Notes: generated by a model from the sequence alone, not told the origin. Counted from the stretch's first letter, positions 1 through 12,396 are shown. The stretch is 12,396 bases of DNA from a virus (IMGVR_UViG_2563366960_000005:1-12396), one strand, 5' to 3'. Numbers and translations: made by a program.

Positions 1-810
1 CCGTTCAACGACACGGCCTCCGTTAACACGCTGGTGACCGAGATGAACGATACCAGCGGTCGCTGGAGCTATGCGCGTCAGCTGTATGGTCATGTGTATA
101 CGGCAAAGATCGGCACGTTGTCAGAACTGGTGACCGCAGGTGACCAGTTTAACCAGCAGCACATTACCCTGGCGGGGTACGAAAAAGAGACCCAGACGCC
201 TGCCGACGAGCTGGCGGCAAGCCGTACCGCCCGCGCAGCGGTGTTTATCCGCAACGATCCGGCACGTCCCACGCAGACCGGTGAGCTGGTGGGTATGCTG
301 CCTGCGCCGAAGGGGAAACGGTTCACGATGACCGAACAACAGACCCTGCTGTCTCATGGCGTGGCAACGGCGTATGTCGAAAGCGGGGTACTGCGCATTC
401 AGCGTGATGTCACCACGTACAGGAAAAACGCTTACGGGGTTGCGGATAACAGCTACCTCGACAGTGAGACGCTGCATACCAGCGCGTATGTACTGCGCAA
501 ACTGAAATCCGTCATTACCAGTAAGTACGGGCGTCACAAGCTTGCCAGTGACGGTACCCGCTTTGGTCCCGGTCAGGCGATTGTCACTCCGGCGGTGATC
601 AAAGGGGAACTGCTGGCAACCTACCGTCAGCTTGAGCGTGTGGGGATCGTGGAAAACTACGAACTGTTTAAGCAGTACCTGGTTGTGGAGCGTGATGCCA
701 GCGATCCGGACCGCCTGAACACGCTGTTCCCGCCTGACTATGTTAACCAGCTGCGTGTCTTTGCCGTGGTTAACCAGTTCCGTCTTCAGTATTCAGAGGA
801 GTCCGCATAA
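1..810 (+). CDS. Phage tail sheath protein, C-terminal part (Mu gpL-like); 5' end lies outside the window
   Basis: The reading frame is open from nt 1 to the TAA at 808-810, so the gene starts upstream of the window. It sits immediately upstream of a ~118-aa tube-sized gene with a TAATG stop/start overlap, as in contractile-tail operons. Sheath identity is inferred from position and size, not from a search. Confidence 0.55.
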   Translation, partial: PFNDTASVNTLVTEMNDTSGRWSYARQLYGHVYTAKIGTLSELVTAGDQFNQQHITLAGYEKETQTPADELAASRTARAAVFIRNDPARPTQTGELVGMLPAPKGKRFTMTEQQTLLSHGVATAYVESGVLRIQRDVTTYRKNAYGVADNSYLDSETLHTSAYVLRKLKSVITSKYGRHKLASDGTRFGPGQAIVTPAVIKGELLATYRQLERVGIVENYELFKQYLVVERDASDPDRLNTLFPPDYVNQLRVFAVVNQFRLQYSEESA

Positions 811-1166
811 TGGCCCGTATCGGGGGAACCTGTTATTTCAAAATTGACGGTCAGCAGCTATCGCTGACCGGCGGCATTGAGGTGCCCATGAACAGGACGG
901 TCAATGATGACATCATCGGCCTGGACGGTTCAGTGGACCGCAAGGAAACTCACCGTGCGCCTTATGTCAAAGGGACCTTCAAGGTGCCGAAGAATTTTCC
1001 GGTGAGCAAAATCACCTCGTCTGATGAGATGACCATTACTGCCGAGCTGGCGAACGGTCAGGTCTATGTACTGTCGTCTGCCTGGCTGCACGGCGAAGCG
1101 AACCATAATGCCGAAGAAGGCACGGTTGATCTTGAGTTCCACGGTGAAGAAGGGGATTACCAGTAA
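810..1166 (+). CDS. Phage tail tube protein (Mu gpM-like)
   Basis: 118-aa ORF coupled to the sheath gene by a TAATG overlap and to the next gene by a TAATG overlap at 1164-1168. Position and size fit a tail tube protein. Confidence 0.55.
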   Translation: MARIGGTCYFKIDGQQLSLTGGIEVPMNRTVNDDIIGLDGSVDRKETHRAPYVKGTFKVPKNFPVSKITSSDEMTITAELANGQVYVLSSAWLHGEANHNAEEGTVDLEFHGEEGDYQ

Positions 1167-1435
1167 TGAAAGAGCTTGAGTTAAAGAAACCGATTATCGC
1201 TCATGGCGAGACACTCTCCGTACTGGAGTTTGATGAACCCACCGGGAAGGATGTCCGCGAGCTGGGGTATCCTTACCAGATGAATCAGGATGAGTCCGTC
1301 AGACTTCTGGCGCATGTGGTGTCGAAATACATTGTGCGGCTGGCGAAAGTGCCGCAAAGCTCTGTCGACCAGATGTCTCCGGCAGACCTGAATGCAGCGG
1401 CGTGGCTTGTGGCTGGTTTTTTCCTCCAGGCCTGA
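1166..1435 (+). CDS. Tail assembly chaperone, short form (lambda G-like)
   Basis: 89-aa acidic ORF directly upstream of the tape-measure gene. It ends just after a TTTTTTC heptamer, and a -1 frame ORF overlaps its 3' end. Confidence 0.5.
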   Translation: MKELELKKPIIAHGETLSVLEFDEPTGKDVRELGYPYQMNQDESVRLLAHVVSKYIVRLAKVPQSSVDQMSPADLNAAAWLVAGFFLQA

Positions 1436-1584
1436 CGGCTGAATACCTCACTGATCGCTTCTTTGACTGCGCCAGTTACTGGCGCATTAATCCCTTCGAA
1501 TTGCTGAATAAGCCGATCAGTGAAATTCCCTTGCTGGTCAGTCAGGCAAACAGGATAGAGCAGGAGAAACGCACACATGGCTGA
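1166..1584 (+). CDS. Tail assembly chaperone, frameshift-extended form (lambda GT-like); -1 ribosomal frameshift at 1417-1423
   Basis: ORF 1402..1584 is in the -1 frame relative to 1166..1435. Slipping at T_TTT_TTC (1417-1423) gives the reading ...AGFF|PPGLTAEY..., which continues to the TGA at 1582-1584, overlapping the tape-measure ATG at 1577. Confidence 0.4.
1417..1423 (+). promoter_or_regulatory. Putative -1 programmed ribosomal frameshift slippery heptamer (T_TTT_TTC)
   Basis: The heptamer is in the X_XXY_YYZ register of the upstream chaperone frame and lies inside the overlap with the -1 frame ORF. Confidence 0.4.
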
Positions 1585-3409
1585 ATTTGAGCTTAAGGCG
1601 TTGATCACCGGTGTCGACAGGCTTTCTCCAGCGCTGTCGAAAATGCAAAAGAAAATCCGGGGATTTAAACGCCAGGCGGAAGAAGCGTCACAGGGTGGGC
1701 TGGCGCTTGGTGGCGGACTGGCAGCGGGTCTGACGCTTTCCCTGAAATCTTATGCCGATCAGGAAAACGCCGCCACCGGGCTGAAAGTCGCCATGATGGA
1801 TGCGAACGGCGAGGTTGGAAAGAGCTTTCAGGACATCAATAAACTGGCTATTGGCCTGGGTAACCAGCTACCCGGTACAACGGCTGATTTCCAGAACATG
1901 ATGCAGATGCTGGTGCGTCAGGGGATCCCGGCAGAAAACATTCTTGGCGGTGTGGGTAAAGCGACAGCTTATCTTGCGGTACAACTGAAAAAAACACCGG
2001 AAGCGGCTGCTGAGTTTGCTGCAAAGATGCAGGATGCTACCGGAACGGCGTCAGAAGACATGATGGGGCTGTTCGACACTATCCAGAAGGCGTTTTATCT
2101 GGGCGTTGACGATACCAACATGTTGTCCTTCTTCACTAAAACCAGTTCTGTTCTGAAGATGGTGAACAAGGACGGTCTTCAGGCTGCACAGAGCCTTGCC
2201 CCCATCAGCGTCATGATGGATCAGATGGGGATGAACGGGGAGTCGGCAGGTAATGCCCTGCGAAAAGTTATCCAGTCCGGATTAAGCGTTAAGAAAATCA
2301 GGGACGTCAATAAAGTCATGGCCCGCCAGAAACTCGGGGTACAGCTCGATTTTACTGACGGCAAAGGGAGTTTTGGCGGTCTTGATAACATGTTCAGGCA
2401 ACTGGCAAAGCTGCGAAAACTGACCGACGTTAAGCGAACAGGTGTACTTAAGGCAATATTTGGTGATGATGCCGAAACCCTTCAGGTGGTCAATGCACTA
2501 ATCGATAAAGGAAAGGATGGCTACGATCAGATCCAGCAGAAGATGAATAAACAGGCCAGCCTGAATAAACGTGTTCAGGCCCAGCTTGGTACGCTGTCCA
2601 ACCTGTGGGAGGCAATGACGGGGACCGCAACTAACGGCCTTGCGGCTATTGGCGGCGCATTTTCTGGTGACGCCAAAAATATCACGCAATGGCTGGGGGA
2701 GTTGGGGGAAAAATTCACGAAGTTTGCGGATGAAAATCCCCGGGTTATTCGCGGCGTCGTCGGGCTTGCTGCCGGTCTTGCGATTCTGAAACTGGGATTG
2801 ATGGGCGTTGGCGGTGCCATCAGTATTGTCAGCAGGATTATGTCGATGACGCCGATTGGCATGATTGCGACGGCGATAGCCCTGGCTGCGGGATTAATTA
2901 TCACTAACTGGGATGTTGTCGGACCTTATTTCAAGAAGCTCTGGGAAACCATTAGTCCTTATTTTGAGGCTGGCTGGGAACTTCTGAAGAAGGTTTTTGC
3001 CTGGTCGCCGCTGGGGATGGTGATCAATAACTGGGGACCGGTTGTTAAGTGGTTTCAGGATATGTGGGATAAGCTGAAGCCAATTATTGAGTGGTTTACC
3101 GACAGTTCCGGTGACACGGTCGATGCCATTAACTCGGCGCAGTGGGGCGCGGGTGCTTATGATGCTTATGGGACGGGAATACCGCCACGGGGATACACTC
3201 CTTATCCGGAGGTGGATCCGGCTCAGGCAAACAACGCCTCCGGTGCCACAGGCCCGAATCCTTTCATGATTAATAAAGCTACCGCGCCAAAAGTTGATGG
3301 TGAGATCAAGGTATCATTTATAAATATGCCATCAGGTATGCGGGTTACGGAAACACGCTCCAGTGGCATTGATATAAATCACGATGTTGGCTATACCCGA
3401 TTTTGGTAG
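1577..3409 (+). CDS. Phage tail tape measure protein
   Basis: 610-aa ORF right after the chaperone pair, with an AGGAG ribosome-binding site at about 1561-1565. It has a long Ala/Gly/Gln-rich helical N-terminal region, hydrophobic segments (GVVGLAAGLAILKLGLMGVGGAISIV...) and a C-terminal run of periodically spaced Trp/Phe (NWDVV...KLWETI...GWELL...FAWSP...NNWGP...KWFQDMWDKL...EWF), all typical of tape-measure proteins. Confidence 0.75.
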   Translation: MAEFELKALITGVDRLSPALSKMQKKIRGFKRQAEEASQGGLALGGGLAAGLTLSLKSYADQENAATGLKVAMMDANGEVGKSFQDINKLAIGLGNQLPGTTADFQNMMQMLVRQGIPAENILGGVGKATAYLAVQLKKTPEAAAEFAAKMQDATGTASEDMMGLFDTIQKAFYLGVDDTNMLSFFTKTSSVLKMVNKDGLQAAQSLAPISVMMDQMGMNGESAGNALRKVIQSGLSVKKIRDVNKVMARQKLGVQLDFTDGKGSFGGLDNMFRQLAKLRKLTDVKRTGVLKAIFGDDAETLQVVNALIDKGKDGYDQIQQKMNKQASLNKRVQAQLGTLSNLWEAMTGTATNGLAAIGGAFSGDAKNITQWLGELGEKFTKFADENPRVIRGVVGLAAGLAILKLGLMGVGGAISIVSRIMSMTPIGMIATAIALAAGLIITNWDVVGPYFKKLWETISPYFEAGWELLKKVFAWSPLGMVINNWGPVVKWFQDMWDKLKPIIEWFTDSSGDTVDAINSAQWGAGAYDAYGTGIPPRGYTPYPEVDPAQANNASGATGPNPFMINKATAPKVDGEIKVSFINMPSGMRVTETRSSGIDINHDVGYTRFW

Positions 3410-3437
3410 CCAGGATTCCCCTCACAGGTATTGCTGG

Positions 3438-3465
3438 TTGTAAGTCATAAATAGAGTGATAGAAT
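3438..3465 (+). promoter_or_regulatory. Putative sigma70-type promoter for the moron gene (-35 TTGTAA 3438-3443, 16-bp spacer, -10 TAGAAT 3460-3465)
   Basis: AT-rich intergenic DNA about 40-60 bp upstream of the ATG at 3501. Hexamers found by eye only. Confidence 0.25.
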
Positions 3466-3500
3466 TAATGCACATTTAGAAAAATGTTAATAGGCGAAAA

Positions 3501-4031
3501 ATGAAAGGCTATATCACAGCAAGTGTAATTCTTGGAGCAGCGGCTATTTTTTCATCTCTCATAATCTCTGGCAACATCTCCTTTAAAGATGAACATATTA
3601 TTCAGTTATCTGGAGGAGCCATAAAACTTGGTGATGTTTATAAAGAAAATAAATTGATAAGTGCAAAGATTATTTTTCCAGATAATCAGGGTGAACAGAT
3701 TCTTGTTGTCGACGGCAATCCTGAAAACTTTAAGGAGGATTTTCAGGAGAAATTAAATAAAGTAATAAAAACTTTAAATGCGTCAAAGAAAAAAGATGAA
3801 GAGAAAGTTAGCCTGGATAATTTAAGTGTTGTTGAAGAGTCTAAACTAGAGCTCGTTTCTGCGGTGCGTTACTCTGCTCAGTATGTTCCTATGTTTACTC
3901 TGACGCTGGACAAAAAAGAAATTACCATGCCTAAAAATACGGTAATATTTCCATTTGCCAGCGATGAAACAGCTAAGTATTTAAATGAACAACAGCAAAA
4001 GTATAAAGATTCGTTGTTTCTGACTCGCTAA
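3501..4031 (+). CDS. Hypothetical moron protein with an N-terminal hydrophobic segment (possible signal peptide or membrane anchor)
   Basis: 176-aa ORF in a sharply AT-rich block between GC-richer tail genes, flanked by non-coding DNA on both sides and followed by a hairpin terminator. The N-terminus MKGYITASVILGAAAIFSSLIISG is hydrophobic; the rest is Lys/Glu/Asp-rich. No family recognised. Confidence 0.6.
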   Translation: MKGYITASVILGAAAIFSSLIISGNISFKDEHIIQLSGGAIKLGDVYKENKLISAKIIFPDNQGEQILVVDGNPENFKEDFQEKLNKVIKTLNASKKKDEEKVSLDNLSVVEESKLELVSAVRYSAQYVPMFTLTLDKKEITMPKNTVIFPFASDETAKYLNEQQQKYKDSLFLTR

Positions 4032-4050
4032 TTAATAAAATTCATTACAA

Positions 4051-4076
4051 GGCCACCTTCTAATAGGTGGCTTTTT
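4051..4076 (+). terminator. Rho-independent terminator downstream of the moron gene
   Basis: GGCCACCT (4051-4058), loop TCTAAT, AGGTGGC (4065-4071), then TTTTT (4072-4076); about 20 nt after the TAA at 4029-4031. Confidence 0.65.
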
Positions 4077-4092
4077 AATTTTCGGAGTATAT

Positions 4093-5421
4093 ATGACGTG
4101 GAAAGACAGGCTTCAGGACGCGTCATTTCGCGGCGTGCCGTTTAAGGTCGAAGAAGAAAGTGCGGGAACAGGTCGCCGTGTGGAAACGCACGAATACCCG
4201 AACCGCGACAAACCCTATACCGAAGATCTGGGAAAAGTCACTTTCCGCCCGTCCATCACGGCTTATGTGGTGGGAGATGACTGCTTTGACCAGCGCGATC
4301 GCCTGATTGACGCGCTGAATAAACCCGGTCCCGGCACGCTTGTCCATCCGACATACGGTGAGCTGAAAGTCTGTGTTGACGGGGAAGTTCGGGTCAGCAC
4401 ATCGAAAAGTGAAGGGCGTATTGTCCGCTTTGACCTGAAGTTTGTCGAAGCAGGAGAACTCTCTTACCCCACATCAGGTGCGGCGACGGCGCAGACGCTG
4501 ATGTCATCCTGTTCTGCACTGGATGACTGCATCAGTGACAGCTTCAGCGGTTTCAGTATCGATGGTGTGGCGGATTTCGTGCAGAACGACGTTATCGGTA
4601 ATGCCAGCATAATGCTGGGGTATGTTTCTGATGCGATGAAAGTGGTGGATTCTGCCGTATCGGATGCCGCCAGGCTGTTGCAGGGGGATATCTCGGTACT
4701 TCTGCCGCCGCCATCGTCAGGCAAAAATTTCGTTGAGCAGGTGCAGAAAATGTGGCGTACCGGGAAACGCCTTTATGGTAACGCCAGCGACCTGGTCACC
4801 ATGATCAAAACGCTTTCCGGTGTCAGCCTCGGCAGCGATCTGCAACCGCGCGGCGTCTGGAAAACGGACAGTAAAACCACCGCCACGGCGACGCAGCAGC
4901 GTAACGTGGTTGCCAGCACCCTTCGTACGACCGCAATCAGCGAAGCGGCGTATGCCGTCACCCGATTGCCTGCGCCAACAACTTCCGCGGTGATGCAGAA
5001 TTCCGCAGTGGGGCAGGCAACAACACCCGCGCAGAGCACTGGCTGGCCTTCCGTCACGCATCCGGCACTGAACAATGCACCGGCGGTGAAAAACACGGTT
5101 GACCTGCCGACGTGGGAAGAACTGACTGACATTCGCGACACACTGAATACGGCAATTGATAAGGAGTTGTCCCGTACAACCAGCGATGCGCTGTTTCTGG
5201 CGCTGCGCCGGGTGAAAGCAGATCTGAATGCGGATATCAACACGCGCCTTGAACAGTCTGCACGGATCATTCAGCGCACACCGGATGAGGTTTTACCCGC
5301 GCTGGTGCTGGCGGCGACCTGGTTTGATAACGCGGCGCGTGACGCGGACATTATCCGGCGTAATGCCATTACGCATCCCGGCTTTGTGCCGGTGATCCCT
5401 CTGAAGGTGCCAGTGCAATGA
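4093..5421 (+). CDS. Phage DNA circularization protein (Mu gpN / gp43-like)
   Basis: 442-aa ORF with a GGAG ribosome-binding site at 4084-4087. The N-terminus MTWKDRLQDASFRGVPFKV...GRRVETHEYPNRDKPYTEDLG matches, as I recall it, the conserved N-terminal domain of Mu gpN-like proteins. It sits between the tape-measure and hub genes as in Mu-like tail modules. Confidence 0.75.
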   Translation: MTWKDRLQDASFRGVPFKVEEESAGTGRRVETHEYPNRDKPYTEDLGKVTFRPSITAYVVGDDCFDQRDRLIDALNKPGPGTLVHPTYGELKVCVDGEVRVSTSKSEGRIVRFDLKFVEAGELSYPTSGAATAQTLMSSCSALDDCISDSFSGFSIDGVADFVQNDVIGNASIMLGYVSDAMKVVDSAVSDAARLLQGDISVLLPPPSSGKNFVEQVQKMWRTGKRLYGNASDLVTMIKTLSGVSLGSDLQPRGVWKTDSKTTATATQQRNVVASTLRTTAISEAAYAVTRLPAPTTSAVMQNSAVGQATTPAQSTGWPSVTHPALNNAPAVKNTVDLPTWEELTDIRDTLNTAIDKELSRTTSDALFLALRRVKADLNADINTRLEQSARIIQRTPDEVLPALVLAATWFDNAARDADIIRRNAITHPGFVPVIPLKVPVQ

Positions 5422-6497
5422 ACGACAATGTCACGCTACGGGTAAATGGCCGGGAGTGGAATGGCTGGACATCGGTGCGCATCGGTGCCGGTATTGAACG
5501 GCTGGCGCGGGATTTCAGCGTGGAGATCACCCGCCAGTGGCCGGGTGATGAGGGTATCACCACGCTTCAGCCGCGCATTAAAAATGGTTCAAAAGTGGAA
5601 GTGCTGATTGGTGATGAGCTGGTGATCACCGGCTGGGTGGAGGCGACCCCCGTTCGTTACGATGCCCGTTCGGTCAGCACCGGTATTGCCGGACGTAGTC
5701 TGACTGCTGACCTGATTGACTGTGCAGCCGAACCGACACAGTTTAACGGACGATCGCTGGTACAGATTGCGCAGGCGCTTGCTGCGCCTTTCGGCATTGA
5801 GGTGGTGAACAGCGATGCGCCGTCGGGTGTTATTCCGGATGTCCAGCCTGATCACGGTGAAACGGTGATCGAGGTGATCAACAAAATACTCGGTCAGCAG
5901 CAGGCGCTGGCTTATGACGACCCGCACGGCAGGCTGGTGATTGGTGGTATTGGCTCAACGCAGGCACATACCGCGCTGGTACTTGGGGAAAACATCCTTT
6001 CCTGTGATACGGAGAAGAGTATCCGGGAGCGGTTTTCAGTTTACCAGGTGGCGGGGCAGCGTGCCGGAAACGACGATGATTTCGGTGAGGCCACCACCAC
6101 CGCGCTGCGGGCCCGCACAGAGGATGCATTTATTGCCCGTTACCGTCCGATGTATATCAGGCAGACAGGGCAGGCTACGGGGGCAGGCTGTATTGCGCGT
6201 GCTGACTTTGAAGCCCGACAACGGGCGGCGCGGACGGATGAAACCACCTATGTGGTGCAGGGCTGGCGACAGGGTAACGGTACGCTGTGGCAGCCCAACC
6301 AGCGGGTGATTGTCTTCGATCCGGTCTGTGGTTTCGACAATACCGAACTGCTTGTCTCGGAAGTCACGTTTACTCAGGACCAGAATGGCACCCTGACGGA
6401 AATCCGTGTCGGCCCACCTGATGCTTATCTGCCTGAACCCGAAGCCCCCGGCGCGCGGAAAAAGAAAAAAGCCAGAGTACAGGAGGACCCGTTCTGA
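5418..6497 (+). CDS. Phage tail/baseplate hub protein (Mu gpP / gp44-like, P2 gpD-like)
   Basis: 359-aa ORF coupled by ATGA overlaps to the genes on either side. Size and position match the hub gene that follows gpN in Mu-like clusters. Confidence 0.65.
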   Translation: MNDNVTLRVNGREWNGWTSVRIGAGIERLARDFSVEITRQWPGDEGITTLQPRIKNGSKVEVLIGDELVITGWVEATPVRYDARSVSTGIAGRSLTADLIDCAAEPTQFNGRSLVQIAQALAAPFGIEVVNSDAPSGVIPDVQPDHGETVIEVINKILGQQQALAYDDPHGRLVIGGIGSTQAHTALVLGENILSCDTEKSIRERFSVYQVAGQRAGNDDDFGEATTTALRARTEDAFIARYRPMYIRQTGQATGAGCIARADFEARQRAARTDETTYVVQGWRQGNGTLWQPNQRVIVFDPVCGFDNTELLVSEVTFTQDQNGTLTEIRVGPPDAYLPEPEAPGARKKKKARVQEDPF

Positions 6498-7045
6498 TGA
6501 AGGCGATTGAAACCATACAGCGACAACTCCTCGGCCTGATTGGGCGGGCGGTGGTGAAAAGCATCAGTGCCGCCACGAAATGTCAGACCGTGGATGTGTC
6601 CCTGATTGCCGGTGAACCCAAAGCCGGGGTTGAACATCTTGAACCCTACGGTTTTACCGCAAGAGCAAACAGCGGTGCGGAAGCGGTGGTGTTGTTTCCG
6701 GATGGTGACCGTTCTCATGCGGTGGTTGTTACGGTGTCGGACCGGCGCTACCGCCTGAAAGGGCTGCAGACTGGTGAGGTGGCTGTCTATGACGATCAGG
6801 GGCAGTCCGTGACGCTGACCCGGGAGGGGATCGTGGTGGACGGTGCAGGTAAAACGATCACGTTTCGCAATTCACCTAAAGCACGTTTTGAAATGGACCT
6901 GGAAGTGACAGGACAGGTGAAAGACCTGTGCGACTCCAGCGGCACCACCATGTCAGCGATGCGGCTTGCCTATAACGGGCATCGTCACAGAGAGAACGGT
7001 CAGGGCAGTAACACCGACAAACCTGATAAAGCGATGGAGGCATGA
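6497..7045 (+). CDS. Baseplate assembly / central spike protein (gpV-like, Mu gp45-like)
   Basis: 182-aa ORF with gpV-like small beta-rich character (GEVAVYDDQGQSVTLTREGIVVDGAGKTITF). TGATG coupling upstream, ATGA coupling downstream. Confidence 0.65.
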   Translation: MKAIETIQRQLLGLIGRAVVKSISAATKCQTVDVSLIAGEPKAGVEHLEPYGFTARANSGAEAVVLFPDGDRSHAVVVTVSDRRYRLKGLQTGEVAVYDDQGQSVTLTREGIVVDGAGKTITFRNSPKARFEMDLEVTGQVKDLCDSSGTTMSAMRLAYNGHRHRENGQGSNTDKPDKAMEA

Positions 7046-7470
7046 TGGAACTGTGGCTGACGGTGAACGGTAAACGCACCTGCGCCAGCGCACCGCTGGA
7101 TCCGCTGACCCGCGCCGTGGTGATTTCCCTGTTTACCTGGCGGCGGGCGGAGCCTGATGACAACGCCGACGTCCCGATGGGATGGTGGGGGGATACCTAG
7201 CCTGCGGTACAGAATGACCGTTACGGCTCCCGACTGTGGCTGCTTCAGCGCAGCAAACTGACCAATCAGCTGGTGCTGACGGTAAGGGGGTATATCCGCG
7301 AATGCCTGCAATGGATGATTGATGACGGCGTGGTGTCCCGTATTGATCTGGATATCCGCCGCACCGGGATTAATGAACTGGGTAACAGTATCACCCTCTG
7401 GCGTCGTGACGGACCGGTAATGATTTCTTTTGATGATCTGTGGAGTGCGATAACGCATGGCGGACAGTGA
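7045..7470 (+). pseudogene. gp46-like baseplate protein (Mu gp46 family) interrupted by an in-frame amber codon at 7198-7200
   Basis: ATG at 7045 with a GGAGG ribosome-binding site at 7036-7040. The frame is open except for a single TAG at codon 52 (...[27 protein letters not shown]...) and continues in the same frame to the TGA at 7468-7470. The ORF track's 7273..7470 ORF is simply the downstream part of this frame. Confidence 0.55.
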
Positions 7471-8515
7471 ATTTCAGCGCCCGACGCTGGCAGAAAATAT
7501 CAGTATGCTCCGTAACGATTTATTCGCCAGGCTGGACGTCAGCGACACGCTCCGGCGCATGGATGAAGACGTGCGGGCAAAGGTGTATGCGGCGGCGCTG
7601 CATACGGTTTACGGGTACATCGATTATCTGGCAATGAACATGCTGCCTGACCTGTGCGATGAGTCCTGGCTGGCGCGACATGCTGCGATGAAACGGTGTC
7701 CGCGCAAGGGGGCCACGGCTGCCAGCGGGTATATGCGCTGGGAAGGTGTCAGCGATGGCCTGAAGGTGACCGCCGGGAGTGTTATTCAGCGCGATGACCT
7801 GGTTCAGTACACGGCAACTGCCGATGCAACCAGCTCCGGTGGTGTCCTGCGCGTGCCGATCGCCTGCTCAAGTGCAGGCGCGGTCGGTAACGCTGACGAC
7901 GGTACGGCATTAATCCTGGTCACGCCGGTGAATGGTCTGCCGTCTTCCGGTGTGGCTGACACCCTGACAGGCGGATTTGATACTGAAGAGCTGGAAACGT
8001 GGCGCGCCCGCGTCATTGAGCGGTATTACTGGACGCCGCAGGGCGGGGCTGACGGGGACTATGTCGTCTGGGCTAAAGAAGTGCCCGGCATTACCCGCGC
8101 ATGGACATACCGTCACTGGATGGGAACGGGAACTGTCGGTGTGATGATTGCCAGCAGTGACCTGATTAATCCCATTCCGGAAGAATCAACGGAAACGGCG
8201 GCAAGACAACATATCGGGCCACTGGCCCCGGTGGCAGGCTCTGATTTGTATGTGTTCAGGCCGGTGGCACATACGGTGGATTTTCATATCCGCGTGACGC
8301 CGGACACACCGGAAATACGGGCTGCCATCACCGCGGAGTTGCGTTCGTTCCTGCTGCGTGATGGTTATCCGCAGGGAGAACTGAAGGTATCGCGTATCAG
8401 TGAGGCGATTTCCGGTGCGAACGGGGAATACAGCCATCAGTTGCTTGCACCGGCAGACAATATCTCCATTGCAAAAAATGAACTGGCGGTACTGGGGACG
8501 ATTTCATGGACGTGA
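7457..8515 (+). CDS. Baseplate J-like protein (Mu gp47-like)
   Basis: 352-aa ORF, translationally coupled to its neighbours. Size and position after gp46 fit the baseplate J family. Confidence 0.7.
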
Positions 8516-9090
8516 CAAACGATGATTACATCCGTCTGTTGTCGGCACTGTTGCCCCCCGGTCCGGCGTGGTCAGCCAGCGATCCGTCGATTGCCGGTGC
8601 GGCACCGTCATTAACCCGCGTTCATCAGCGTGCGGATGCCCTGATGCGGGAGCTGGATCCGCGCACCACCACTGAACTGATAAACCGCTGGGAGCGTCTG
8701 TGCGGTCTGCCGGATGAATGTATTCCCGCAGGGACACAGACCCTTCGCCAGCGTCAGCAACGGCTGGATGCGAAGGTTAACCTGGCGGGCGGCATCAACG
8801 AGAATTTTTATCTTGCACAGCTTGCTGCCCTGGGCAGACCAGACGCTACCATCACGCGATACGACAAAAGCACGTTCACCTGCTCATCGGCCTGTACTGA
8901 CGCGGTGAATGCGCCGGAATGGCGGTATTACTGGCAGGTCAACATGCCAGCCGCCACAAACACCACCTGGATGACATGTGGCGATCCCTGTGATTCCGCA
9001 CTGCGTATCTGGGGCGACACCGTTGTCGAATGTGTGCTTAACAAACTCTGTCCGTCTCATACCTACGTAATTTTTAAATATCCGGAGTAA
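8506..9090 (+). CDS. Phage tail protein (Mu gp48-like / DUF2313-like, P2 gpI-like)
   Basis: 194-aa ORF between the J-like gene and the tail fiber gene, the conserved position of gp48/gpI-type wedge proteins. Confidence 0.6.
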
Positions 9091-9093
9091 TCC

Positions 9094-9864
9094 ATGCATC
9101 GCATAGACACGAAAACCGCGCAGAAGGATAAGTTCGGCGCGGGTAAGAACGGTTTTACCCGTGGCAACCCCCAGACCGGCACGCCTGCCACCGATCTGGA
9201 TGATGACTACTTTGACATGTTGCAGGAAGAGCTTTGTAGCGTGGTGGAGGCATCCGGTGCCAGCCTGGAGAAGGAGAGGCACGACCAGCTGCTTACCGCG
9301 CTTCGTGCGCTGCTGTTAAGTCGCAAAAATCCGTTTGGCGATATCAAATCGGATGGCACGGTGAAAACGGCTCTCGAAAACCTTGGTTTGGGAGAAGGCT
9401 CTGCATTACCTGTTGGTGTCCCTGTTCCGTGGCCTTCAGCCACTCCGCCAACAGGCTGGCTGAAATGCAACGGAGCAGCTTTTTCTGCTGAAGAATACCC
9501 GGAACTGGCAAAGGCTTACCCGACAAATAAATTGCCAGATTTACGTGGTGAGTTTATTCGTGGCTGGGATGACGGGCGTGGTATTGATGCTGGACGTGCT
9601 TTATTGAGCCTTCAGGCTGGGATGCTGGAAAAACACCGCCATATTGTTGTTGCCAATGATGGTTACGACACAAAAGATGAATGGGAACTGGCTACGATTT
9701 TCAAAAAAACATACACACAAGGACGGGGACTTGATGCCACAAATACAGGAGGGAGTCTGATCCCATCACCGACACTTCATTCACGAGGGAGTATCGGTAA
9801 TACTGGCGGGAGTGAGACCCGTCCACGAAATATTGCATTTAACTTTATCGTGAGGGCTGCATAA
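9094..9864 (+). CDS. Tail fiber protein: constant N-terminal part (to about 9384) plus variable C-terminal part in the current orientation
   Basis: 256-aa ORF with a GGAG ribosome-binding site at 9084-9087. The C-terminal half has a tail-collar-like motif ([23 protein letters not shown]...[19 protein letters not shown]). A hix/gix-like crossover site lies inside the ORF at 9371-9396, spanning the codons for ENLGLGE. Confidence 0.75.
9371..9396 (+). promoter_or_regulatory. hix/gix-like invertase crossover site, left (CTCTCGAAAACC-TT-GGTTTGGGAGAA)
   Basis: 26-bp imperfect palindrome resembling Hin/Gin recombination sites as I recall them (TTCTTGAAAACC AA GGTTTTTGATAA). It shares a 15-bp identity (TTGGTTTGGGAGAAG) in inverted orientation with the site at 11219-11244. 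Confidence 0.55.
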
Positions 9865-10466
9865 TGGATAACGCAGTATTAAATAGCGAGTTTATTGCCA
9901 CGAAGGCGGGGAATATTACCGTCTATAACTACGATGGTGAAACTCGGGAATATATTTCTGCATCAACTGAATATCTTGCAGTGGGTGTCGGTATTCCAGC
10001 ATATTCCTGTTTAGACGCTCCTGGTACATATAAGGCTGGTTATACAATTTGCCGTTCTGTAGATTTAAATTCATGGGAATATGTGCCAGACCATCGCGGT
10101 GAAATCGTCTATAACACCGAAACGGGAGATGCCAAAGAAATCACAGCACCGGGTGATTACCCCGAAAATACAACCACTATCGCCCCATTAACGCCATACG
10201 ATAAATGGGATGGTGAGAAATGGGTGACCGATACTGAGGCACAGCATAGCGCCGCAGTAGACGCGGCAGAAGCACAGCGTCAGTCACTGATTGATGCTGC
10301 AATGGCTTCCATCAGTCTGATTCAGCTGAAATTACAGGCCGGACGGAAGTTGATGCAGGCAGAAACAACCCGGCTTAACGCTGTGCTGGATTACATTGAC
10401 GCGGTGACGGCAACAAATACCAGCACAGCGCCGGATGTCATCTGGCCTGAACTGCCGGAGGCGTAG
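9864..10466 (+). CDS. Tail fiber assembly chaperone (Mu U / Tfa-like)
   Basis: 200-aa ORF with a TAATG overlap to the fiber gene. Its C-terminal motif ...LDYIDAVTATNTSTAPDVIWPELPEA is shared with the convergent paralogue. Confidence 0.7.
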   Translation: MDNAVLNSEFIATKAGNITVYNYDGETREYISASTEYLAVGVGIPAYSCLDAPGTYKAGYTICRSVDLNSWEYVPDHRGEIVYNTETGDAKEITAPGDYPENTTTIAPLTPYDKWDGEKWVTDTEAQHSAAVDAAEAQRQSLIDAAMASISLIQLKLQAGRKLMQAETTRLNAVLDYIDAVTATNTSTAPDVIWPELPEA

Positions 10467-10881
10467 GCCATTCAATATCTGGCGCCCCGGAAGTATCGAC
10501 CAGTTCCAGTGCGTCCAGATAATCCAGCCACAAATTATATTGCGCCAGCTCGTCCCCCTTCAGGCGACCAATAGCTGCTTTACCAGGCCATTGCCTACTG
10601 TTCATGTATTCGTTGGCATGGTTAATCAATAATTGCCTCTCTGATTCGGCCTGTTCAATAAGTTCCTCATGTGATGGTGGAGGTATTTCAGCCCATGTGG
10701 GAAAACCATTTTCCCCTGCAACTCGGATTTTCCCTTGTGGCGGTTCCGCCATATATTTTACAGAAATGTCATCAGGAATATCTAATGCATCAGCAGGCCA
10801 TGTTCCATTTACTTCATAAGTGTTTTTTAAATTAACAGCATAAAAAGCATTTTCCGAAGGGGAATAAATATATTGATTCAT
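10438..10881 (-). CDS. Alternative tail fiber assembly chaperone (U'-like)
   Basis: 147-aa minus-strand ORF whose 3' end overlaps the 3' end of the + strand chaperone. Its C-terminus ...LDYLDALELVDTSGAPDIEWPTPP parallels the U-like C-terminus. It starts 1 nt after the stop of the alternative fiber segment. Confidence 0.7.
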   Translation of the reverse strand: MNQYIYSPSENAFYAVNLKNTYEVNGTWPADALDIPDDISVKYMAEPPQGKIRVAGENGFPTWAEIPPPSHEELIEQAESERQLLINHANEYMNSRQWPGKAAIGRLKGDELAQYNLWLDYLDALELVDTSGAPDIEWPTPPAVQAR

Positions 10882-10882
10882 A

Positions 10883-11232
10883 TTATCTTCCTATTGCGAT
10901 AATCATAGTTCCATACAAACCATTTCCGGTTGATACTTTTAAAGTTACTGATGTCCTTGTTGTCGTGTACCCCATAAGTTTAAAGGTCGGAGCAGCCGTT
11001 AATGAGCCATCTGACCATAAGGCACTAACAGCTAGTGCGCCTGAAGGAAATGCAATAGGGAAATTACCTGTAGTTCCGTTAGTGTCCGCCCCATAAACAT
11101 TCATCGAAAACATTTGGACAATATGACCACTTGGTAACTGAAACCAGTTTTTGCCAGATGGAAATGCAGACATATCTGGTATCTGATTTTCCCCTGTTCC
11201 CACATTCCGTTTTGCCGCTTCTCCCAAACCAA
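10883..11232 (-). CDS. Alternative tail fiber C-terminal segment (Sv'-like); has no start of its own and would be expressed only after inversion fuses it to the constant N-terminus
   Basis: Minus-strand frame open from the crossover site at 11219-11244 to the TAA at 10883-10885. Next to the crossover it encodes ...GLGE, identical to the residues encoded at the other crossover site in the + strand fiber gene. Confidence 0.6.
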
Positions 11233-11244
11233 CGTTTATGAAAA
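11219..11244 (+). promoter_or_regulatory. hix/gix-like invertase crossover site, right (TTCTCCCAAACC-AA-CGTTTATGAAAA)
   Basis: Inverted copy of the half-site plus core of the 9371-9396 site. It lies about 55 bp upstream of the invertase ATG, the canonical position for such sites. Confidence 0.55.
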
Positions 11245-11298
11245 TGCAGAAATAACGAGCAAATGGCATCATTCCTGCTTTTGCCAGGGGGAGCTACC

Positions 11299-11526
11299 AT
11301 GCTTATTGGGTATGTACGCGTATCAACAAATGACCGGAACACCGCTCTGCAACGTAATTCGTTGAACTGTGCAGAATGTGAGTTGATTTTGAAGATAAAA
11401 TCAGTGGCACAAAGTTCAATAAAAAATATACCTGACACATTATACGAAGAAGATTTTATGGTTTTTTCTGTTGATTTTTTAACATGGCTGCATGGATACA
11501 GATATGACGAAGGTAATGTAGAGTAG
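11299..11526 (+). pseudogene. Truncated serine DNA invertase (Gin/Pin/Hin family); only about 31 N-terminal codons are retained
   Basis: ATG at 11299 with a GGGGGAG ribosome-binding site at 11286-11292. The encoded MLIGYVRVSTNDRNTALQRNSLNCAECELI matches the invertase N-terminus including the catalytic-serine region. Homology ends at about 11390; the frame then continues through AT-rich unrelated sequence to the TAG at 11524-11526, giving roughly 75 aa instead of the roughly 190 aa expected. Confidence 0.6.
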
Positions 11527-11538
11527 TAAGAACATAAA

Positions 11539-11561
11539 TAGGCTGACAAAAGTTCAGCCTA
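11539..11561. terminator. Hairpin between convergent genes, possible bidirectional terminator
   Basis: TAGGCTGA (11539-11546), loop CAAAAGT, TCAGCCTA (11554-11561). On the minus strand it is followed by TTTATGTT, 14 nt after the stop of the 273-aa gene. The T tract is weak on both strands. Confidence 0.3.
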
Positions 11562-11574
11562 CAGTCTTTTCATC

Positions 11575-12396
11575 TTATCTTACAGCTGGTGTTTGAGGTG
11601 GCTTCGTTTTCGTTTTTTTCACGCCCTTGTTTTTTACTATTTCCAGTGCCCTTTTCTGAAGGTCTACTCCTGATGGATAGAGCACGTTGAGAATGTGCTC
11701 AGTCAGTCGGTACGCATCAAACAGATCACTTTGAGTTAAACCTGATGCTGCGTGACTCCCTTCATTACCTAACCACTTAACAGCAAATAAAAGTCCATCT
11801 AACTTTCCAAATGTTTTTTTTCTATGTGCAGCTATGGTAATTCGTTCATGAAGAGACATGAGGCACCGCTCGCGCTTGGACTTACCCTTCCGCTTAATTA
11901 ATTTGTATTTTGGTATATTGTATTCAGATAAAAGATTCTCTATTGCCATTCTAACCTTGTTTGCTGCTGAGCTTGGCGAAAGTAGTGTCAGTGAAAATGC
12001 TTCTTGCAAATTCTCATATACTTCAGATGGACATGTTGTGGGGATATCTATGTACTGTAGCGGAGGGATAAATACTTTGGGGATGTAATAGCTAAAGTAC
12101 TCCTGTATCTGTTCATCTCGATCATTTACAGTAATATCCATCTCAACATAACCAGTGCCTGAGCAGACGACAACTTCCTCGCATTCATGATTTTCGCATA
12201 CCAGAACCGCAGTAAAAACCTCTTTAATCAGTTCTGTATCGGAGCCGAGAATCTCAATAAGATTATGTGATTCACTAGTTACCTTTGCATAAAATTTTTC
12301 TTTATTTAATTTCAAACTGCTTCTTCCGCAACTTGGGCACGGGTATGTCACGTAGTCATTTACTTTGAAAGGTTTACCAATTGAAAACTTATCCAT
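11575..12396 (-). CDS. Hypothetical protein with N-terminal Cys-rich putative zinc ribbon and C-terminal DUF4145/HEPN-like region; candidate defence or abortive-infection cargo
   Basis: 273-aa minus-strand ORF in AT-rich DNA; its ATG is the last three bases of the window, so its promoter is outside. Cysteines at C20-x2-C23 and C67-x4-C72 (plus C78). The C-terminal third has SPSSAANKVRMAIENLLSEY ... KWLGNEGSHAAS, resembling the R/K-x-x-G-N-x-x-x-H signature I associate with DUF4145/HEPN-like domains. Ends in a Lys-rich tail. Family assignment is unverified. Confidence 0.55.
   Translation of the reverse strand: MDKFSIGKPFKVNDYVTYPCPSCGRSSLKLNKEKFYAKVTSESHNLIEILGSDTELIKEVFTAVLVCENHECEEVVVCSGTGYVEMDITVNDRDEQIQEYFSYYIPKVFIPPLQYIDIPTTCPSEVYENLQEAFSLTLLSPSSAANKVRMAIENLLSEYNIPKYKLIKRKGKSKRERCLMSLHERITIAAHRKKTFGKLDGLLFAVKWLGNEGSHAASGLTQSDLFDAYRLTEHILNVLYPSGVDLQKRALEIVKNKGVKKTKTKPPQTPAVR

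Follow-up and report, generated by a model that had tools for sequence, protein, structure and literature searches.

SfV, SfII, SfI and SfIV are serotype-converting myoviruses of Shigella flexneri that integrate at thrW (PMC3851460), and SfV has been described as having a Mu-like tail (PMC4542187). Tails of SfV/Mu ancestry also occur as tailocins: the R-type syringacin lies at a fixed trpE–trpG locus and has lost the genes for replication, head and packaging (PMC4542187). Here we analyze a 12,396-nucleotide stretch of viral DNA (IMGVR_UViG_2563366960_000005:1-12396, hereafter the window), which shares 97.3–97.8% nucleotide identity with the four Shigella phages over positions 1–9397. A preliminary description had taken it for a Mu-like tail module showing signs of decay or domestication and had left the choice between a complete prophage, a defective remnant and a domesticated tailocin to the flanking DNA. 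Our results indicate that the window very likely covers three parts of an SfV-like temperate myophage of ~41.5 kb at thrW, namely the tail module, the invertible fibre cassette and the first cargo gene, and that this prophage is not a tailocin but was recently acquired and is otherwise complete apart from a probably disabling amber mutation. Judged by its genes, the phage is of the SfV type, combining lambdoid regulation, an HK97-type head, a Mu-type contractile tail and site-specific integration; the label "Mu-like" therefore suits the tail, while the rest of the phage is SfV-like.

The window is an exact substring of the Escherichia coli scaffold KB733395.1 (NCBI assembly GCA_000351665.1). 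Its first base lies directly 3′ of a run of 430 Ns inside the sheath gene (positions 2527–2956 of the source locus, L006). This gap is a spurious product of scaffolding: placed on E. coli PSUO2, the contigs on its two sides share 16 bp, so the sheath gene is probably whole. Compared with PSUO2 and three other complete genomes (H21–H24), the window shows 4 mismatches in 12,396 bases, and a fifth genome is near-identical. The positions that differ from PSUO2 are 1942, 1945, 1948 and 7199. The first three are synonymous changes in the tape measure gene; as clustered third-position differences spanning 7 bases, they have the look of a small conversion patch, or else of a multi-base variant.

The corresponding DNA of PSUO2 is part of an SfV-like prophage of ~41.5 kb at thrW. 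The prophage starts with an intact tyrosine integrase gene abutting tRNA-Thr (thrW), beside proA, and continues with early genes of the yfdP–T type, xis-region genes, a LexA-type repressor, replication and Q genes, and lysis genes for a lambda-type holin and a GH104 endolysin. These are followed by genes for an HNH protein, the small and large terminase subunits, the portal, an HK97 protease, the major capsid protein, connectors and the tail terminator, and then by the window. A 48-bp perfect repeat of the 3′ end of thrW lies 4.3 kb past the window end; this attachment (att) repeat is also present in the source scaffold, where attR falls at L006 19641, about window coordinate 16685. No further att copy, even a degenerate one, turned up between the end of the window and attR in PSUO2, and past attR this genome carries the remnant of another island with the vat autotransporter. 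The source scaffold itself encodes, in the 10 kb upstream of the window (locus L017), HNH, TerS, TerL, portal, S78/HK97 protease, major capsid, connectors, tail terminator and the sheath N-terminus, and this packaging and head DNA shows 100% identity with PSUO2 across 9,570 bp. The preliminary description was right that the window itself lacks head, lysis and integrase genes, and it had pointed to the flanks as the place to look. There, the head and packaging genes and the att repeat were found in the source, and the integrase, repressor, Q and lysis genes in PSUO2.

This context bears directly on whether the locus is a domesticated tailocin, that is, an R-type bacteriocin derived from an SfV/Mu-like tail as in the R-type syringacin of Pseudomonas syringae. 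The window does hold a full contractile tail set in one block, and tailocins of SfV/Mu ancestry exist (PMC4542187). However, terminase, portal, protease, capsid and connector genes stand directly upstream in the source, and the integrase, repressor and att repeat are found in near-identical genomes. Tailocins are defined by having lost their replication, head and packaging genes (PMC4542187), and these are present and intact here; the tailocin option raised earlier therefore fails, and we reject it as exceedingly improbable. A stop in the essential wedge gene gp46 would, moreover, disable even a tailocin, and there is no fixed chromosomal locus, since relatives occupy other sites; in strain C1, a close relative of the module sits at the ssrA attachment site, as befits a mobile phage more than a chromosomal weapon fixed in place.

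The amber mutation is an in-frame TAG at 7198–7200, codon 52 of 141 in the gene for the Mu gp46 homologue, which bears out the earlier observation of a nonsense codon in one baseplate gene. The codon is TGG (Trp52) in SfV, SfII and PSUO2. A G-to-A change at 7199 turns Trp52 into the amber codon and the surrounding CCTGG (7196–7200) into CCTAG. When a 61-base probe centred on this codon was matched to 1,232 places in 1,099 complete E. coli records, the best match had less than 99% identity in every record, so the TAG was absent from the best-matching copy in all 1,099. Public assemblies, by contrast, do contain the exact 51-residue truncated product: it has entries in 79 blocks and was seen on 52 contigs, compared with at least 1,000 contigs for one wild-type allele; a 52-residue version starting one Met earlier is not on record there. 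TAG also occupies this codon in five further loci, which come from one metagenome and from sequencing runs unrelated to each other.

We considered whether the TAG might be a sequencing or assembly error in a draft genome, in which case the prophage would be intact and inducible. The source is a scaffold with N gaps, one of which, the 430-N run, is itself an artefact. The amber is missing from the best matches in complete E. coli records, and four complete genomes that otherwise match the window have TGG. Against this, the identical TAG appears in unrelated projects (NCBI, Logan Sequence Read Archive runs and a European Nucleotide Archive metagenome) on at least five local haplotypes, defined by 900 bp on either side, and the change is one clean transition at a position where chemistry would make a hot spot plausible. 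An error is thus unlikely. The preliminary description had set its reading against complete flanks combined with a TAG that was a sequencing error; the flanks do look complete, whereas the TAG, recurring in unrelated assemblies, does not resemble an error. For at least three of the TAG haplotypes (L006, L007 and L009/L010), the nearest flanking variants also occur with TGG, and the haplotype of the window matches five TGG-bearing loci save for base 7199. The mutation is therefore recurrent and, in the source strain, very recent: the 27 kb around it hardly differ from those of TGG-bearing relatives, which marks the amber as young. At L015 (GCA_009497625.2), a 1-bp deletion in a G6 run (around 15600–15622) lies just upstream of codon 52, and no gp46 gene is called; either gp46 has been hit independently once more in this relative, or the homopolymer was misassembled.

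The likely effect of the amber can be gauged from phage Mu. The protein matches the PDB entry 9ki1, "Baseplate protein gp46" of Mu, with E = 6e-14. Mu gp46 is baseplate wedge protein 1, present in six copies, whose β-sheet pairs with the first sheath ring and starts sheath assembly (PMC11915804). The product of 51 of the 141 residues is without most of the conserved region, and by analogy with Mu the amber would block tail building and probably prevents the formation of infectious particles. Upon induction, the prophage would be expected to excise, replicate, fill heads and lyse the cell without producing functional tails or infectious particles. As to suppression of the amber, thrW is the only tRNA gene in the prophage regions examined, which thus encode no suppressor tRNA, and no Rfam match was obtained in the window.

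The sequence around the mutated base offers a possible reason for its recurrence. CCTGG at codon 52 is a Dcm site, and the change of its first G to A matches a change of the inner C on the opposite strand. Dcm methylation, the deamination of 5-methylcytosine and the Vsr repair that normally counters this change have been described (PMC2715241). Deamination of a Dcm-methylated cytosine on the bottom strand would give CCTAG, and could do so repeatedly. Dcm-type deaminations account for 10 of the 1,031 possible nonsense substitutions in the tail genes, and the observed amber is among them. We infer that recurrent deamination of 5-methylcytosine made the gp46 amber, an explanation that is chemically apt and consistent with the data.

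The hot-spot test was a look-up of truncated products in a public protein collection, in which Dcm-type stops were compared with non-Dcm control stops. For gp46, products ending at the Dcm codons Trp52 and Trp32 were found on 52 and 41 contigs, against 16 and 10 for the non-Dcm codons Trp47 and Trp48, and the two Dcm-type ambers are the commonest among truncated products without "partial" labels. For gp47, the Dcm stop (Trp71) was found on 30 contigs and the controls on 9 and 19. Products at these other Dcm ambers (gp46 Trp32 and gp47 Trp71) are on record from contigs that include some of megabase scale. The tube gene gave 20 contigs for the Dcm stop and 19 for the control. The Dcm stop in gp48 gave 0 contigs and its four controls 0–1; in the tape measure gene, the Dcm stop and nine controls all gave 0 (0 of 10 prefixes found, for ten Trp codons).

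Several points weigh against our account of the locus. The excess of Dcm-type ambers is modest in gp46 and gp47 and nil in the tube gene, and the gp48 and tape measure genes are uninformative. The counts of truncated products include genes cut at contig ends and are uncorrected for clonal sampling. These figures fall short of proving that ambers are more frequent at Dcm sites than at the controls. In addition, the source is a draft, Illumina-era scaffold in which a consensus error at 7199 is possible, and the left third of the prophage, from integrase to lysis genes, is known from near-identical relatives rather than from the source genome itself.

Selection, as opposed to mutation bias, could instead lie behind the recurrence: by silencing virion production, a host would keep cargo and immunity and be spared the cost of induction, which would be an early step in domestication. 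The same stop is found independently on several backgrounds, and two accessory genes of the prophage, a moron within the tail module and a DUF4145 cargo gene at the right end (both described below), are intact and conserved. Yet the allele is rare, as judged from its absence among the 1,099 best matches and from the contig counts given above, and each TAG allele is young, since the downstream frame is otherwise open. A tail knockout also leaves induction lethal, which makes a host benefit uncertain, and truncations elsewhere reach comparable counts. We consider selection quite improbable. It is similarly a long shot that SfV-like prophages are grounded time and again by Dcm sites that overlie Trp and Gln codons in essential virion genes and act as "fuses", with the Trp52 amber arising repeatedly and being retained because a tail-less lysogen keeps its immunity and defence cargo. 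Under that proposal, Vsr favouring CTAGG to CCAGG could raise reversion and so create a slow, reversible switch of infectivity. For the amber itself, we favour recurrent deamination.

The second lesion of the prophage affects its fibre switch. The window resembles SfV as far as 9397, and from 9372–9383 onwards it resembles P2-like fibre cassettes. Two crossover repeats bracket a variable tip with its chaperone and, on the opposite strand, an alternative tip with its own chaperone. The Gp53-like_C domain of the alternative tip belongs to the expressed fibre in L013, L015 and E. coli EC6563. In EC6563 and L013, the segment has the opposite orientation with inversion breakpoints exactly at the crossover repeats, and some of the relatives with the flipped segment also carry an intact 184-residue invertase. 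The preliminary description had reported a truncated invertase, and this is correct: about 39 of 184 codons are left at 11299–11415, just outside the end of that finding at 11272. The remnant retains the ATG at 11299, contains a 1-bp deletion and loses its similarity to pinE near 11415, its 3′ part having been replaced. In PSUO2, the Prokaryotic Genome Annotation Pipeline (PGAP) labels it "recombinase family protein, frameshifted, incomplete". The truncated-invertase junction was present in 6 of 5,426 complete E. coli genomes.

The sites and alternative tips of a Gin/Pin/Cin/Hin-type fibre switch are thus present, and the adjacent invertase is dead. The prophage would be unable to flip its own fibre segment and would stay in the Collar orientation unless the invertase of another element acts in trans. 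In EC6563 (L018 3754–10773), the same junction of truncated invertase and DUF4145 gene is found, 99.2% identical, with the fibre segment flipped. That orientation could have come about by inversion in trans through the invertase of another element or by recombination; the fibre alleles of EC6563 and the window differ.

Taken together, "decay" here comes down to a single point mutation and the damage to the invertase gene. In the earlier term "defective remnant", "defective" probably holds in the narrow sense that the gp46 amber and the dead invertase are defects, while "remnant" overstates the decay of an element whose flanks look complete.

The features of the window are collected in Table 1. 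Tail genes were identified by Pfam matches above curated cut-offs. The plus strand carries an unbroken run of contractile-tail genes, each with a Pfam match, and the tail proteins other than gp46 are close in length to their SfV and SfII counterparts. The near-complete contractile tail gene set noted previously is therefore confirmed, with the Pfam families from sheath to gp48, the fibres and the chaperones all found. The role of the gp43 homologue as tube initiator is taken from the structure of Mu (PMC11915804). In the tail assembly chaperone gene, a T-run GGTTTTTTC lies near 1415–1423, and an overlapping open reading frame (ORF) extends downstream to 1584. By analogy with other tailed phages, a −1 frameshift at GGTTTTTTC probably yields an extended chaperone. 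This extension is without PGAP annotation in PSUO2.

Table 1. Features of the 12,396-nucleotide window
Feature	Position	Strand	Match	Remarks
Tail sheath, C-terminal 269 codons	1–810	+	Pfam Phage_sheath_1, Phage_sheath_1C	N-terminal part upstream of scaffold gap
Tail tube protein	810–1166	+	Pfam Tail_tube, E=2e-33	
Tail assembly chaperone	1166–1435	+	Pfam Phage_TAC_7	
Overlapping ORF	1402–1584	+	phrog_32181, E=6e-40	Probable −1 frameshift extension of tail assembly chaperone
Tape measure protein	1577–3409	+	Pfam PhageMin_Tail	610 residues
Moron	3438–4084	+		Promoter-like site 3438–3465; ORF 3501–4031; terminator-like hairpin 4049–4074 with T-rich tail
Tube initiator / "DNA circulation" protein	4093–5421	+	Pfam DNA_circ_N, E=3e-34	Mu gp43 homologue
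Baseplate hub	5418–6497	+	Pfam GpP-like_1st, Gp44-like_2nd, GpP_4th	Mu gp44/P homologue
Baseplate spike	6497–7045	+	Pfam Phage_Mu_Gp45	Mu gp45 homologue
Baseplate wedge protein 1	7045–7470	+	Pfam GP46; PDB 9ki1	Mu gp46 homologue; amber at 7198–7200
Baseplate wedge protein 2	7457–8515	+	Pfam Baseplate_J, E=2e-52	gp47/Baseplate_J
Baseplate wedge protein 3	8506–9090	+	Pfam Phage_Mu_Gp48	gp48/YmfQ
Tail fibre, expressed orientation	9094–9864	+	Pfam Collar	Constant N-terminus to about 9377; variable Collar C-terminus in invertible segment
Left crossover site	9378–9397			20-nt inverted repeat, 95% complementary to 11218–11237
Tail fibre assembly chaperone (tfaE-like), expressed orientation	9864–10466	+	Pfam Caudo_TAP, E=2e-30	
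Alternative tail fibre assembly chaperone, silent orientation	10438–10881	−	Pfam Caudo_TAP, E=1e-32	
Alternative fibre C-terminus (gp53-like), silent orientation	10883–11272	−	Pfam Gp53-like_C	Would join constant part after inversion
Right crossover site	11218–11237			Inverted-repeat partner of 9378–9397
Pin-type serine invertase remnant	11299–11415	+	Alignment to intact pinE of strain C1; weak Pfam Resolvase match	~39 of 184 codons
Cargo gene	11575–12396	−	Pfam DUF4145, E=2e-10	273 residues; Cys4 zinc ribbon and DUF4145 (HEPN-like)

The G+C content is 0.51–0.60 in the tail genes, 0.33–0.34 at 3401–4000 and 0.38–0.43 from about 10600 to 12396. The preliminary description had interpreted two AT-rich blocks as cargo insertions and as signs of decay. 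The first is indeed an inserted, self-contained accessory gene, the moron, whereas the second stretch, as far as 11272, is the silent fibre cassette, and cargo starts only beyond 11415. Neither is a sign of decay, as both are normal accessory or variable DNA of temperate phages. The moron ORF (G+C 33%) encodes a protein of 176 residues with an N-terminal hydrophobic anchor, and it was found in 179 of 5,426 complete E. coli genomes, with at least 99% identity in 174 records. The protein falls in phrog_5485, a PHROG without assigned function; searches of Pfam, NCBIfam and PADLOC and a tblastn search over 50,697 phage records gave no match, and its single-sequence AlphaFold model had a mean predicted local distance difference test score (pLDDT) of 36.5 and was unusable. 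The moron encodes a putative membrane-anchored protein, and a role in superinfection exclusion would be a guess from its position and anchor.

The variable cargo region at the right end begins with the DUF4145 gene and runs ~4.3 kb past the window to attR. The encoded protein has cysteines at C20, C23, C67 and C72 and, in the family alignment, an invariant R149, R185 and GNxGSH(215). DUF4145 is a divergent HEPN RNase domain, and the combination of zinc ribbon and DUF4145 is the architecture of the abortive-infection protein RAZR/PD-T7-4 (PMC13017515, PMC3710099). The layout of the protein, with an N-terminal Cys4 zinc ribbon and a C-terminal DUF4145/HEPN domain, is the same as in RAZR. PADLOC returned a weak match to the PD-T7-4 model (E=0.0034, 14.9 bits), and PDB sequences gave chance-level matches only. 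A Foldseek search with the DUF4145 model (pLDDT 86.7) gave no match at E≤0.001 and only weak matches to HEPN toxins. In EC6563, retron Ec48 follows the DUF4145 gene cluster, which fits a variable slot for defence and cargo genes at the place where SfV has its gtr genes. On their sequence features, the moron and the DUF4145 protein are candidates for exclusion or defence functions. Two small ORFs (146 and 95 residues; L006 15639–16366) lie on the same strand upstream of the DUF4145 gene. In PSUO2, within the att bounds (L001 30397–34732), we also noted an EamA/DMT transporter and a GntR-aminotransferase (MocR-type) regulator with a near-chromosomal G+C content of 0.49; as phage cargo the pair would be unusual, and it may instead be left over from an island that occupied thrW before.

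These findings carry a lesson for annotation: a window that holds only tail genes and lies beside a scaffold gap can mimic a tailocin or a decayed remnant, even when it is half of a complete SfV-type prophage. A disabling mutation that sits at a Dcm site and recurs in unrelated strains also illustrates how prophage inactivation can start by a predictable point mutation. The element itself is an ordinary SfV-like prophage, and that its amber recurs at a Dcm site is of minor note rather than a discovery.

Compared with known systems, the locus is closest to SfV, SfII, SfI and SfIV: from sheath to gp48 its tail genes follow an identical order and hardly differ in length, the head and packaging genes upstream are the same, and integration is likewise at thrW. 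Between the tape measure and gp43 genes, where the window carries the moron, SfV and SfII show no more than a short, terminator-containing spacer. Unlike SfV, whose fibre is short and fixed, the window has an invertible two-fibre cassette with a Pin-type invertase; it also differs from SfV in the gp46 amber and the dead invertase. The cargo slot has no gtr or oac genes for O-antigen modification and holds the DUF4145 gene and further genes instead.

In E. coli K-12, the e14 element is a defective prophage in icd, a remnant of ~15 kb that is without most structural genes but has kept pin, and its switch of fibre tip and chaperone, the P invertible segment, is driven by the Pin-type invertase. 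The likeness extends to nomenclature, as PGAP uses the e14 gene names ymfK, ymfL, ymfT, ymfR, ymfQ and tfaE here, and pinE in C1. In contrast to e14, the structural module is complete here, the element lies at thrW and the invertase is the dead part. The locus and phage Mu agree in the Pfam families of their tail genes and in the order of these from sheath to gp48, and both follow the logic of an invertible fibre segment (in Mu, the G segment and Gin). Unlike Mu, it has no transposition genes and combines site-specific integration, lambdoid regulation and an HK97-type head, and the similarity is at the protein level only. The R-type syringacin has homologous tail genes; the present locus differs from it in having head and packaging genes, both in the source and in PSUO2, together with the integrase, regulatory and lysis genes seen in PSUO2.

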